64,000 bases of DNA from an uncultured Pseudomonadota bacterium. Its GTDB lineage: Bacteria > Bacillota > Sulfobacillia > JAUYEF01. The notes under the pieces are model-generated. The model did no database searches, was not told the DNA's origin, and saw nothing but the letters and a program-made list of their open reading frames with translations. Position numbers and translations under genes: made by a program. The stretch is from positions 33,741-97,740 of the forward strand of contig CAYQIY010000011.1 in NCBI GenBank assembly GCA_964417635.1, written 5' to 3'. This document shows positions 29,079-37,424 of this stretch, in pieces. Within the stretch, counting starts at the first letter, position 1. Each line of letters begins with the position of its first letter.

Positions 29079-29096
29079 TTGTGAAAAAAATCACTT
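29079..29096. promoter_or_regulatory. Rex-like operator half-palindrome overlapping a TTGACA -35 box
   Basis: TTGTGAAAAAAATCACTT: perfect TTGTGAA half-site plus partial TCAC partner, against the Rex consensus TTGTGAAnnnnTTCACAA; placed upstream of the hydrogenase locus. Confidence 0.35.
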
Positions 29097-29149
29097 GACA
29101 TATGTACAGTATAGATTCACACTTAGTTATGGAAAGGGGGGTTAACTTG

Positions 29150-29713
29150 ATGGCGCAGGAACAGGATGCGCTTGCGATGAGGGTCAAGCGCTTCAGAGAG
29201 AACAACAACATGTCTGTGCGAGCGCTTGCCGCAAGAGTAGGAGTGACTCCCAGTTTTATCTATCAGCTGGAACAGGGCAAGGTTTCGGCTTCATATTCGA
29301 CTCTTAAGAGCATAGCCTCCGCTCTGCACACTTCTGTATCGGTGCTTGCCGGTGACGAAGTACCGACTGAGTGGTTCCTAGTCAAAAAGCACGACAGACG
29401 GAAATTGGTGCTCGACGGCACGGGGATGGCTTACGAACTGCTGAACTTCACGGGAGCGCGTGCTAAGCGAATGCATCCGCTGTTTTTCACGCTGGATGCA
29501 GGTGCTGAGGAGCGAGGTACTCTGTACGAGCACGAGAGAGAAGAGTTTGTGTTTCTAATTGAGGGACAGTTGGAGATCGTGATGGCAGGCAAGAAATACA
29601 CGCTTGAGGGCGGAGACGCGCTGTACTTCATGTTTGAGAGGCCTGAGGTCATCAGGAACACAGGAGAGAGCAAAGCCCAAGGCATTCTGGTGGTATCACC
29701 TCCGGGCGTATAG
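29150..29713 (+). CDS. XRE-family transcriptional regulator with C-terminal cupin domain
   Basis: ORF 29102..29713; start at Met17 after GGAAAGGGGGG; N-terminal HTH (MSVRALAARVGVTPSFIYQLEQGK), C-terminal cupin-like beta segment. Confidence 0.8.
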   Translation: MAQEQDALAMRVKRFRENNNMSVRALAARVGVTPSFIYQLEQGKVSASYSTLKSIASALHTSVSVLAGDEVPTEWFLVKKHDRRKLVLDGTGMAYELLNFTGARAKRMHPLFFTLDAGAEERGTLYEHEREEFVFLIEGQLEIVMAGKKYTLEGGDALYFMFERPEVIRNTGESKAQGILVVSPPGV

Positions 29714-29741
29714 CAGCACAGTGAATGAGAGGTGTGTTGTA

Positions 29742-34250: not shown

Positions 34251-34502
34251 GTGTTGATTACCGTCCAGGTTTGCATGGGGAGCTCCTGCTATATAAGGGG
34301 TTCGGCCAAGGTGGTTGAGACGTTAAGAAGACTGATAGAGCGAAATGGTCTTCTGAACAAAGTCGTGCTGAAAGGCAGCTTCTGCATGGAGCGCTGCACG
34401 CACGGAGTCACAATCAAAATAGATGACAGCCTTTTTACAGGTGTTCACCCAGAGGACATTGAACAGCTGTTCAGTCGCGAAGTGCTCGCACGCATTTCGT
34501 GA
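34251..34502 (+). CDS. Small thioredoxin-like [2Fe-2S] ferredoxin (NuoE-like fold)
   Basis: 83 aa, four Cys (CMGSSC...CMERC); paralogous to the C-terminal domain of HydA; GTG start after AAAGGAG. Confidence 0.7.
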   Translation: MLITVQVCMGSSCYIRGSAKVVETLRRLIERNGLLNKVVLKGSFCMERCTHGVTIKIDDSLFTGVHPEDIEQLFSREVLARIS

Positions 34503-36265
34503 CCCGAATAGAGGAGGTGGCGGCTCTCGTGGGGATCATCTCGACGATAGAAGCTAGGTGCAAGGATTGCTACAAGTGCCTAAGGGCATGTCCGGTCAAG
34601 GCGATAAAATTTGTGCCGGGAGATGCATCGGGTGAATTGCACGCTCGCGTGGTCGACGATATGTGTGTGCTTTGTGGTACGTGTGTAAAAGAGTGCCCTC
34701 AAAACGCCAAGAAGGTTCGTGAAGACCTGGACGTTGTCAAGCACATGCTTGAGTCAAAGCGACCGGGCGTGCCCATCGGCGTTAGCATTGCACCGTCGTT
34801 TGTGTCGGGTATGATGCTTGAAGAGCCGCTCGGCATAGTGAGCGCACTCAAGCGACTGGGGTTCGATGTGGTAGAGGAAACCGCGATAGGTGCTGCGCTT
34901 GTGGCTAAGTTTCACTCAGAATACGAACCGGACTCACAGCCTAAAGTCATAGGTACTGCGTGTCCGGTAGTGGTGAACCTCGTAGAGAAGTACTATCCGG
35001 ACGCAATAAGCAGCATGACACCTGTCGTTTCTCCCATGATAGCGCATGCTCGCGACCTTCGCGCGCGCCACCCTGGGATTCAGGTTGTGTTCATCGGGCC
35101 TTGCTTTGCCAAGAAGAGTGAGGCAGAGGAAGCTTACGGCAGTTCTGAGGTGGCGGCGGTGTTGACGTTCGCCGAACTGGCGAAGTGGTTCGAAGAAGAG
35201 GGCATAGACCTCGAGCAGATGCAGCCAGCAGAATTCGAAGGGCCGAATCCAGGCACCGCACGCTTTTTCCCGCTAGAGGGCGGCCTGCCTCATACAGCTT
35301 CGATGGAAACCGGAGTAGGCGCAAAAACTACTCTCGCTGTATCAGGTATCGAAGAGTGCATGGATTTCCTTAAGATGGCGCAGGAAGACAACCCCCTGAT
35401 AAAAGACATCGCAGTGGCTGATCTTCTAGCATGCAGAGGCGGCTGCATAAACGGCCCGGGCATCGCGACTACTGCAGACCAGTTCACGCGAAGAGCACAC
35501 CTTGTGCAGTATGCTGCAGCGAAAAAGCGCTTGACGTGCGAGGTAGATGAACCCAGCGCCGAAGATATCGATCTCTCGCGCGCATTCTGCTCCAAACAGC
35601 CCAAACTGCGTCAGCCTACAGAACAAGAAATACGGCAGATTCTCGAGCGTACTGGCAAGATGACAGAGGCTGACGAACTGAACTGCGGTTCATGCGGATA
35701 CAGTTCGTGTAGGGCAAAAGCCATAGCGGTGTACCAAGGACTGGCTGAGATAGAGATGTGCCTTCCGTACATGCGCTCAAAGGCAGAGTCGCTCTCGAAC
35801 TCGGTTGTGGAGCATGCACCAGACGGCATCGTAGTCGTTGACAGTGCTTGCCGAATAGTCCAGGTAAACCGTTCGTTTGAACGGATGTTTGGGTCAGGTG
35901 CCAAGAACGTTTTGGGACAGCCACTTGCGAACATCATTGATTCTGAGAACTATGAGCGGGTTCTCAGTGAGCACAAGCCCATCATGGTGACATGTGCGTA
36001 TCCGAAATATGGAGTGGTGACGCTCCAGACCATATTCTATATGCCTGACCAGAGGCTCGCGGTCGGTATAATGGCCGACATCACCGAAGAAGAGAAGCGC
36101 AAAGAAGCCATGCTGAAACTCAAAGCCGCTACCATGACTCGGGCACAAGAGGTCATCAACAAGCAGATGAAGGTGGCGCAGGAAATAGCGAGCCTTCTGG
36201 GAGAGACTACCGCAGAGACCAAAGTGCTGCTTTCAAAAATCATTGAACTAAACCGCCAGGACTGA
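34499..36265 (+). CDS. hydS: Putative sensory [FeFe]-hydrogenase HydS (ferredoxin + degenerate H-cluster domain + PAS)
   Basis: N-terminal 2x[4Fe-4S] ferredoxin motifs; H-domain with altered motifs ([25 protein letters not shown]); Cx2Cx4Cx16C motif (CGSCGYSSC...C) then PAS-like domain; start may be ~34529. Confidence 0.8.
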   Translation: [588 protein letters not shown]

Positions 36266-36272
36266 GGCCGAT

Positions 36273-37424
36273 ATGCAGCTTTTCTATGAAGTGGGATACT
36301 CGCAGCTCAACAAGAACAACGAAGAACTGTGTGGCGATAGCGTCGAAGTAACTCGCACTCGCCGCTCAACGATCGTCACGGTGTCTGACGGGCTGGGTAG
36401 CGGCGTCAAGGCTAACATTCTGTCGTCTCTGACCACCAAGATGGCAGCCACCATGCTGAAAAAAGGTTCAGCTGTGGACGAAGTGATCGAGACGCTGGTG
36501 GGTACGCTGCCCACATGTAAGGTCAGAAAGCTGGCCTACAGCACTTTCACCGTGGCAAAGTTGGATACTGACGGCAGCATCTACATAGCCGAATACGATA
36601 ACCCTCCGGTGATGTCGGGCTCAGCGCAGGCTCAGCTGGACGTAAGGTTTTGTGAGCGGGAAGTCGGCGAAAAGACGATTCGCGAGGCTCGGTTTCGGGC
36701 GAAGCCAGGAGACTGGCTCGTGATAGTGAGCGACGGCGTACTGCACGCCGGTATAGGAGGAGTCTGGAACCTCGGGTGGGGTTGGGACAGAGTATCCAGC
36801 TACGTGAGCCGACTCGCGGCGAGTGGTCTTAGCGCAGACGAACTGGCAGCAGATGTCACGTCTTTGTGCAACAGGCTCTACGGAGCAATGCCCGGGGATG
36901 ATGCCACTTGCGTGGCGATTAGAGTCAGGGAGCCGCGGCATCTCGCACTGATGGTAGGCCCACCGGCAGACCCAAAAGACGACGAGATTGCCGTGCAGCG
37001 CCTGCTCGAGTGCCCAGGCAGGAAGGTGGTCGCCGGTGGCACAACCGGGAACCTGGTAGCCCGTGCGCTAGGCAAGCCCATAACAGTCGACCTTGGTTCG
37101 TGTTACGAGGACGTGCCTCCGACAGGTGTTATCGAGGGCATCGATCTTGTGACCGAAGGTATGCTCACGCTTGTAAAGACGCTTGAACACCTGAGGAAGA
37201 ATACATCTCTGTCCCGGTTTGAAGGTAGAAGAGACGGTGCAAGCAGGCTGGCTCGCGCTTTGCTTGAAGCCGACAAGGTGCACGTAATAGTAGGACGCGC
37301 CATAAATCCGGCTCATCAGAGTCGTGATGTGCCTGCGGCACTTGCGCTAAAGAGCCAACTCATAGACGACATAATACGCGAACTACGAAAGAGGCAGAAG
37401 CGGGTGAGCGTTGAGTATCACTGA
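36273..37424 (+). CDS. SpoIIE/PP2C-family serine phosphatase with C-terminal uncharacterised domain
   Basis: 383 aa; PP2C-like N-terminal half (GDSVEV..VSDGLGSG..., VSDGVLHAG, DDATCVAI); follows hydS with 7-nt gap. Confidence 0.75.
   Translation: MQLFYEVGYSQLNKNNEELCGDSVEVTRTRRSTIVTVSDGLGSGVKANILSSLTTKMAATMLKKGSAVDEVIETLVGTLPTCKVRKLAYSTFTVAKLDTDGSIYIAEYDNPPVMSGSAQAQLDVRFCEREVGEKTIREARFRAKPGDWLVIVSDGVLHAGIGGVWNLGWGWDRVSSYVSRLAASGLSADELAADVTSLCNRLYGAMPGDDATCVAIRVREPRHLALMVGPPADPKDDEIAVQRLLECPGRKVVAGGTTGNLVARALGKPITVDLGSCYEDVPPTGVIEGIDLVTEGMLTLVKTLEHLRKNTSLSRFEGRRDGASRLARALLEADKVHVIVGRAINPAHQSRDVPAALALKSQLIDDIIRELRKRQKRVSVEYH

Follow-up and report, generated by a model that had tools for sequence, protein, structure and literature searches.

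A putative H2-sensing [FeFe] hydrogenase–phosphatase module in the operon of a likely electron-bifurcating hydrogenase

The means by which fermentative and syntrophic anaerobes sense H2 are still an open question, and group C "sensory" [FeFe] hydrogenases are widespread among the candidates for that task. We studied an operon that brings the question to a single locus, within a 64-kb stretch of DNA from an uncultured bacterium (64,000 nucleotides of contig CAYQIY010000011.1; hereafter the window). Its genes encode an XRE-family regulator with a cupin domain, a catalytic [FeFe] hydrogenase made of HydA and a fused HydC–HydB subunit, a small ferredoxin, the hydrogenase-like protein HydS and a SpoIIE/PP2C-type Ser/Thr phosphatase (Table 1). 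Does HydS report H2 to the phosphatase, and through which parts of the two proteins? We think it fairly probable that the locus joins a bifurcating-type HydA/HydCB operon to a regulatory module of ferredoxin, HydS and phosphatase resembling hfsABC, in which an H2 signal would pass through HydS to the phosphatase. The system belongs to a class that already has a name, the phosphatase-linked [FeFe] hydrogenases of group C/M2f found with a group A3-type hydrogenase. A preliminary description of the locus had called HydS a putative H2 sensor with an unsolved mechanism, and on this the domain and motif tests agree with the literature (PMC5037454, PMC10055695, PMC13104023).

For comparison, a species-level genome scan with HydS as the query gave 286 relatives, the closest just 50% identical, and 80 loci were kept for comparing neighbors by clustering of open reading frames. 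Motif and conservation statistics for HydS were computed from 81 sequences, the window copy and 80 relatives. Loci labeled L0xx are stretches around related hydrogenase modules and total 1.32 Mb. The proteins of the window were scanned with Pfam and NCBIfam. A metagenome scan with the XRE–cupin protein returned the source contig as its sole match.

HydS, its phosphatase and their conserved neighborhood

The active site of HydS is complete in its ligands and altered around them. In an alignment to solved group A enzymes, C155, C202, C312, C316 and K205 of HydS match C300, C355, C499, C503 and K358 of CpI, and the four H-cluster cysteines and the lysine are invariant in 81 of 81 sequences. The proton-relay residue Cys299 is replaced by A154, Met353 by G200 (Gly in 77 of the 81) and Met497 by L310, at a position that varies across the family between Asn, Leu, Met and Ser. 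The motifs described as degenerate in the preliminary description are these substitutions; the ligand cysteines are all kept. HydS of Thermotoga maritima (TmHydS) and group C are described as having lost Cys299 and as carrying other residues in place of Met353 and Met497 (PMC10055695, PMC8163306). Pfam placed Fer4_7, with two [4Fe-4S] clusters, at residues 20–70, followed by the H-domain, PF04060 at 394–423 and, as had been claimed, a PAS domain at 435–530; a Cx2Cx4Cx16C cluster motif is readable ahead of the PAS domain. The combination of this motif with PAS defines subclass M2f, or group C (PMC8163306, PMC13104023), and the subgroup associated with phosphatases is C3 in HydDB, "phosphatase-linked," with putative status (PMC5037454). 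On its motifs, domain order and phosphatase neighbor, we assign the window HydS to group C/M2f, probably HydDB type C3.

Across several phyla, no part of HydS is as conserved as the near-invariant segment of residues ~546–581, which exceeds the PAS core in this respect. Neither the PDB, searched with a profile, nor Pfam, against which 25 tails were scanned, gave a match for the segment, and the PDB contains no HydS-type structure. The most economical reading is a helical hairpin for dimerization or docking, which would be a candidate contact for the phosphatase. A phmmer match to a designed "CAP repeat" protein had pointed to a DNA-binding helix-turn-helix in the tail; we rejected this because the matches to single repeats were nonsignificant, because neither the PDB profile search nor the 25 Pfam-scanned tails gave a helix-turn-helix family and because the would-be recognition helix (ETTAETK) is acidic.

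The phosphatase, which has >6500 homologues, carries all the catalytic aspartates expected of the PP2C enzyme that had been proposed: the metal-coordinating residues D22, D39–G40, D154–G155 and D209–D210, in motifs GD, DG, SDG and GDD, do not vary among 35 aligned sequences, correspond to the SpoIIE motifs and sit in a PP2C β-sandwich fold. Its C-terminal domain is conserved on par with the catalytic domain and has MopB/NuoG, sirtuin, SDR, CARF and the CPS allosteric domain, all nucleotide-binding, as structural neighbors. A profile of the domain matched 1180 representatives at 50% clustering; among the 150 of these matches that were listed, it lay at the C terminus of ~385-aa proteins or in shorter entries, which we read as fragments. 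Since these matches place the domain almost only in one phosphatase family, we regard it as a predicted regulatory domain specific to this family, and its invariant strand-end loops are consistent with a site for a ligand or partner. Neither this domain nor the HydS tail is discussed in the literature on HydS that we examined.

In the loci compared, HydS is rarely without the phosphatase. A full-length phosphatase is encoded beside HydS in 78 of the 80 loci and the small ferredoxin in 71, and loci with all three genes span Bacillota, Chloroflexota, metagenome-assembled genomes (MAGs) labeled Bacteroidota and others. The ferredoxin is also kept in Desulfofalx alkaliphila (L085; genome GCA_000711975.1) and in L087, but there it lies 3' of the phosphatase. 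Genes for NuoF and HydA, as in HydABC, often adjoin the module, and many related loci have the trio alone or beside a monomeric ferredoxin-linked hydrogenase. Clustering found no conserved kinase or STAS family beside HydS in the 80 loci, and tblastn with Bacillus subtilis SpoIIAA, RsbV and RsbW gave no match in the window or the loci, in a search of low sensitivity. A partner-switching module, in which a STAS substrate and a GHKL serine kinase are encoded with the phosphatase, was seen neither in the window nor in the 80 loci. The sole Ser/Thr kinase in the window lies 19 kb downstream of the operon and is a housekeeping Hanks kinase of PrkC type that carries three PASTA repeats. Its own partner phosphatase, a PP2C of PrpC/Stp type, is encoded beside it (the pair at 55971–58687), and the gene order around them, rsmB–rlmN–prpC–prkC–rsgA–rpe, is the usual one. 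The preliminary description had singled out the absence of an adjacent kinase or anti-sigma gene, which is correct for this locus; as no kinase is conserved in the 80 loci, the absence is the norm of the family and characterizes the class as a whole rather than the window locus. The conserved functional unit is ferredoxin, HydS and phosphatase, with no kinase in cis.

The catalytic partner upstream of this unit has the domains and motifs of a HydA(BC) enzyme with a fused NuoE/F-like subunit, as had been described. HydA shows Fe_hyd_lg_C (324 bits), Fe_hyd_SSU and a NuoG-type N-terminal Fe-S domain in Pfam and intact P1–P3 motifs of group A3, the third being MACPGGCVGGGGQ. The HydC–HydB gene starts with GTG at 29742, and its product has an identical counterpart in NCBI/ENA records. 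We judged the HydB part by the sequence signatures that Losey et al. (PMC7311640) use to separate bifurcating from NADH-only subunits: the extra [2Fe-2S] and two [4Fe-4S] domains of an electron-bifurcating HydABC (group A3) are present, as are GDPGAFMDR at 410 (Ala-x-Met, NADH site), GAGAF at 490 (Phe, FMN site) and GGPSG at 610 (SLBB). The fusion recurs in L002, L004, L034, L035, L051, L055 and L086. On these signatures the enzyme is likely electron-bifurcating and of group A3 type. The C-terminal [2Fe-2S] domain of HydA (33950–34208) and the small ferredoxin are paralogues with 39–42% identity, a pairing seen in most related loci.

These elements suggest the following mechanism. With a genuine H-cluster and without the fast proton pathway, HydS would turn over slowly, and the redox state of its clusters would reflect either the partial pressure of H2 or the redox balance of H2 and ferredoxin; its likely electron partner is the small [2Fe-2S] ferredoxin. 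From the region of the C-terminal [4Fe-4S] cluster and the PAS domain, the signal would travel by way of the invariant helices at the C terminus and reach the PP2C phosphatase, which may act on a phospho-Ser/Thr protein encoded elsewhere; its dephosphorylation would then adjust the expression or activity of hydrogenase or fermentation genes. Of what this proposal draws on, the genes present, their motifs, folds and synteny and the conservation of the operators are observed here. Work on homologues adds the H2 reactivity of TmHydS (PMC10055695), a regulatory role for hfsB and hfsC from genetics, with phenotypes of hfsB deletion (PMC5707799, PMC11837493), and reports of group C3 genes beside group A3 hydrogenases (PMC11406978).

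Several points weigh against it. The PAS core, through which the signal would pass, is poorly conserved across the HydS family. HydA exceeds the NCBIfam cutoff of FeFe_hydrog_A6, "NADH-dependent group A6" (786 vs. 765 bits), and we therefore infer bifurcation from the HydB signatures only. As of April 2026 the group C HydS class was still termed putative and its signaling route unsolved; no experiment has demonstrated signaling by a group C HydS to a phosphatase, or the target of that phosphatase, and the C-terminal cluster of the group D enzyme TamHydS gave no response to H2 (PMC13104023).

Promoter, candidate operators and alternative readings

A strong ribosome-binding site (GGAAAGGGGGG) precedes the ATG at 29150, where we place the start of the XRE–cupin gene; the ATG at 29102 is probably too early. 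A word-indexed search found 18 homologues of the protein, and each one inspected heads the same operon, as in L086, L085, L087 (on whose contig the XRE protein is annotated from Desulfohalotomaculum tongense), L002 and L004. L086 is the closest relative and shares the upstream pyrD–pyrF–pyrE genes and the fused HydCB. The same operon, including the regulator, thus exists in cultured Bacillota, and the earlier claim that the locus has its own XRE–cupin regulator can be extended: the gene is conserved with the operon in several lineages and has a candidate operator of its own.

That operator is an 18-bp palindrome with half-sites ACTTGACA-N2-TGTAAAGT. The promoters of XRE-headed operons share an invariant core, ACTTGACA-NN-TGTAnAGT, with the -35 hexamer included, and at ≤2 mismatches the palindrome occurs once each, directly upstream of the XRE gene, in the window, L086, L085, L087, L002 and L004. 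It is absent, at the same threshold, from all of about 75 HydS loci without an XRE gene, and for this reason we rejected it as a HydS-associated site. The palindrome is a probable autoregulatory operator of the XRE–cupin protein, judged by its position and conservation. Upstream of the XRE–cupin gene of L004, two palindrome-like elements, TTGACACATGTAAAGT and ACTTGATAATTATAAGT, lie adjacent at ~4216–4250 and may form a double operator. In the proposed mechanism the whole unit would be transcribed from this promoter, with its -35 box inside the operator, and the XRE–cupin protein, a probable autorepressor, would answer a small-molecule effector.

The box that adjoins the palindrome had been described as a Rex-like operator, and here the claim holds in part. 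The box exists and is kept at the same position in L086 (TTGTGAATGAGTTCACTT, 2 mismatches) and L002 (TTGTGAATACCATCAC), where the adjoining DNA has diverged. In the 1.32 Mb of related loci we counted 36 Rex boxes at ≤2 mismatches, against about 4 expected by our own arithmetic from uniform composition; most lie just upstream of homologous operons, and a rex gene is found within 10 kb of hydS in 21–22 of the 80 loci. Binding of Rex to [FeFe] hydrogenase promoters has been shown by electrophoretic mobility shift assay in C. bescii (PMC6391272). The binding protein would most likely be Rex, acting as a redox regulator of the unit. On the other side, the window box departs from the Rex consensus TTGTGAANNNNTTCACAA at 3 positions, with a perfect left half and ATCACTT on the right, and is not above chance when taken alone, the whole window having 4 such sites at 3 mismatches vs. 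2.6 expected. The 64-kb window has no rex gene. CACACT, the hexamer taken as the -10 box, is a weak one, and the promoter scan passed over this promoter. Neither a Rex pattern with a six-base gap nor the Clostridia-type TTGTTAA variant matched at the promoter.

A CRP/FNR-type protein fits the box itself equally well, and some of the same observations would then change their meaning. TGTGA-N6-TCAC is the CRP-type consensus, and this core is all that the window, L086 and L002 have in common, the outer Rex-specific bases (terminal AA) not being kept. As an activator site the box would be in class II position, centered about -42.5 from the start of transcription, and would turn the operon on under a redox or gas signal; a weak -10 hexamer is what activator-dependent promoters are expected to have, and the window has no rex gene. 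The start behind the figure of -42.5 is, however, inferred and not mapped, and in related Bacillota homologous operons carry full Rex boxes that are perfect or have 1 mismatch, often with an adjacent rex gene, while L086 has a second Rex box upstream with 1 mismatch. We hold the CRP/FNR reading to be a minority possibility, well short of even, and continue to regard Rex as the most likely ligand of the box.

The role of HydS and the direction of the signal can also be read differently. HydS could be an extra slow catalytic or regulatory subunit of the "BfuT" type, docking on HydABC and tuning its activity or directionality, with the phosphatase acting on the hydrogenase complex posttranslationally. 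In the window and in many other loci, HydS genes do adjoin those of group A3 hydrogenases, and bfuT, a group C3 gene, has been named as part of Bfu clusters (PMC11406978). HydS keeps the complete H-cluster site and the F-domain relay, TmHydS turns over H2 measurably (PMC10055695) and the hfs effect may, as Eminoglu et al. proposed, be partly posttranscriptional (PMC5707799). Yet many loci have the trio alone, or with a monomeric ferredoxin-linked hydrogenase instead of HydABC (hfsD, PMC11837493), so that a fixed structural role in HydABC is unlikely, and no HydS-like subunit is found in the solved HydABC complexes among the PDB matches (8a6t and 7p5h, listed as HydA only). We consider this arrangement improbable. 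Slightly more doubtful still is a primary sensor in the phosphatase itself, whose Rossmann-like domain would take NAD(H) or another nucleotide, or a phospho-metabolite, as its ligand and integrate NADH/NAD+ with H2, the HydS helices only modulating the phosphatase. Its appeal comes from a domain as conserved as the catalytic one, nearly confined to its own phosphatase family, with glycine-rich and acidic invariant loops at the strand ends, the ligand-binding place of Rossmann-like folds, and with nucleotide-binding domains as structural neighbors. An extension of the favored reading, in which HydS signals to the phosphatase, combines both inputs and is just as speculative: in a kinase-independent switch, the HydS hairpin would dock on the phosphatase, the Rossmann-like domain would bind an NAD(H)-type metabolite, and H2 and NADH/NAD+ would be integrated before a target in trans is dephosphorylated, the XRE–cupin repressor adding a third, small-molecule input in the clade of the window.

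Limits and setting of the operon

The six co-directional genes occupy 29150–37424 on the plus strand, with the promoter region from 29079, and the list of open reading frames, Pfam and NCBIfam bear out the tight gene order given in the preliminary description. The intergenic distances are 28, 12, 42, -4 and 7 nt, and such small gaps suggest a single operon; translational coupling is probable for the genes of ferredoxin, HydS and phosphatase. The flanks are likewise as described, with pyrE upstream and, downstream, the convergent gene of RqcH (NFACT) followed by DapF. The hairpin 3' of pyrE is the likely terminator of the pyr operon and the upstream limit of the hydrogenase unit. At the other end, the phosphatase gene overlaps the convergent rqcH by 7 nt at their 3' ends (37418–37424), and no terminator-like hairpin lies between the two genes, the nearest on the plus strand being at 37578–37597, within rqcH.

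Table 1. Features of the hydrogenase–phosphatase locus, in window coordinates
Feature	Position	Strand	Characteristics and basis
Hairpin 3' of pyrE	28947–28981	+	12-bp perfect stem, then TTTGCTT; repeat search
Rex-like or CRP/FNR-like box	29079–29096		TTGTGAAAAAAATCACTT; core TGTGA-N6-TCAC; abuts -35 hexamer and palindrome
Palindrome, candidate operator	29093–29110		ACTTGACATATGTACAGT; 8-2-8, 18 bp; holds -35 hexamer TTGACA (29095–29100)
XRE-family helix-turn-helix and cupin regulator, 187 aa	29150–29713	+	First operon gene; HTH_3, Cupin_2 (Pfam); weak PuuR-like match below cutoff
Fused HydC–HydB, 811 aa	29742–32177	+	NuoE-like [2Fe-2S], second [2Fe-2S] ferredoxin-like domain, NuoF-like FMN/NADH module, C-terminal 2x[4Fe-4S]; Pfam, NCBIfam
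HydA, 672 aa	32190–34208	+	Motifs TSCCPGW, MPCTAKKFE, MACPGGC intact; extra C-terminal thioredoxin-like [2Fe-2S] domain
Small thioredoxin-like [2Fe-2S] ferredoxin, 83 aa	34251–34502	+	HfsA position; PF01257; conserved beside HydS
HydS, 588 aa	34499–36265	+	Putative sensory [FeFe] hydrogenase, group C/M2f; Pfam, alignment to group A enzymes, family motif and conservation profiles
HydS residues ~546–581	36134–36241	+	After PAS; conservation in 81 sequences
SpoIIE/PP2C-type Ser/Thr phosphatase, 383 aa	36273–37424	+	HfsC position; metal-binding aspartates, PP2C fold
Phosphatase C-terminal domain, residues 221–383	36933–37424	+	Rossmann-like alpha/beta fold; invariant strand-end loops GPP, GGTTGN, VDL, TEG, DGAS, NPA

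The cluster had also been said to be inserted between the pyr operon and rqcH/dapF. Its content of guanine and cytosine (GC) and its GC skew are the same as in the remaining window, and the word therefore describes position only. We rejected a recent insertion by horizontal transfer, which has no compositional support, and L086 has the same pyrD–pyrF–pyrE–XRE–hyd synteny. Pyrimidine genes (carB, pyrK, pyrD, pyrF, pyrB) lie ≤10 kb from the HydS module in L070, L054 and L056 (in these three upstream of hydS) and in L014 and L010, all from unrelated Clostridia. The pyr/hyd neighborhood may be old.

The sporulation sigma factor genes sigE and sigG place the host, a mesophile-like MAG, in the spore-forming Bacillota; the sigE-like and sigG-like genes follow a spoIIGA-like gene 3' of ftsA/ftsZ (6079–8637), and the GC content of the organism is about 54%. 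The closest copies of the whole six-gene cluster in the genome collection, L002 (JBLNBR010000033.1) and L004 (JBLNCE010000116.1), with 63–65% identity in HydCB and 58–60% in HydA, are from MAGs of one BioProject labeled Ignavibacteriales and Bacteroidota. Set against a sporulating Bacillota host, these labels suggest horizontal transfer or mis-binning. A further redox module is encoded near the operon, on the minus strand at 40152–42416, by a GidA/FAD-oxidoreductase-like gene and the gene of a [quoted passage not shown]; the latter product has a cysteine-rich N terminus, no Pfam match and an NCBIfam match to PRK05802 below cutoff (255 bits).

Relation to known systems

The locus leaves the general picture of H2 sensing unchanged, and its comparison with relatives narrows what to test. 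The most constrained parts are the C-terminal helical element of HydS and the unique Rossmann-like domain of the phosphatase. In L085, L087 and related Bacillota, the XRE–cupin regulator with its candidate 18-bp operator is proposed to control the whole operon. The ferredoxin–HydS–phosphatase unit, the two constrained domains and the XRE operator can all be tested in cultured relatives.

Among known systems, the partner-switching PP2Cs SpoIIE, RsbU, RsbX and Rv1364c differ from the window phosphatase, which is without an N-terminal regulatory domain and has a unique Rossmann-like one at its C terminus; neither a STAS substrate nor a kinase of RsbW/SpoIIAB type was found nearby, in the window or in 81 related loci. 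The HoxBC–HoxJ–HoxA system of Ralstonia/Cupriavidus follows the same logic, with a slow hydrogenase as H2 sensor, a PAS-containing partner and a phosphorylation state that sets hydrogenase expression. It has, however, a [NiFe] site and signals through a histidine kinase and response regulator, whereas the window encodes a PP2C phosphatase and no cognate kinase beside it, and the two share no sequence homology. The HydAB enzyme of Syntrophus aciditrophicus resembles the window in that a NuoE-like gamma subunit is fused to the N terminus of a NuoF-like beta subunit (PMC7311640), but it is nonbifurcating and without extra Fe-S domains, whereas the window HydCB has an extra [2Fe-2S] and two [4Fe-4S] clusters and the A-x-M, F and GGPSG signatures.

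The hfsABCD operon of Thermoanaerobacterium saccharolyticum/T. thermosaccharolyticum likewise encodes a small Fe-S protein, the PAS-hydrogenase HfsB/HydS and the serine phosphatase HfsC, closely linked as one unit beside a catalytic hydrogenase, and HydS–HydA2 of Ruminococcus albus, as cited in PMC5707799 and PMC11837493, is grouped with it. The catalytic partner differs: it is the upstream HydA with fused HydCB in the window and a downstream, monomeric, ferredoxin-linked HfsD/HydA2 in hfs. Many other HydS loci have a second hydrogenase-like gene downstream; 3' of the window phosphatase there is no HfsD-type gene, the convergent rqcH being reached from 37418, so the window operon is not of hfsABCD type in the strict sense. 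An XRE–cupin regulator heads the window operon, and the hfs operon is not described with one. TmHydS has the same domain order as the window HydS (two [4Fe-4S], H-domain, Cx2Cx4Cx16C, PAS), with the H-cluster ligands kept, Ala at C299 and Gly at M353, and differs at M497, which is Ser in TmHydS and Leu in the window. It is likewise encoded with a multimeric group A hydrogenase, beside a gene for a Ser/Thr phosphatase.

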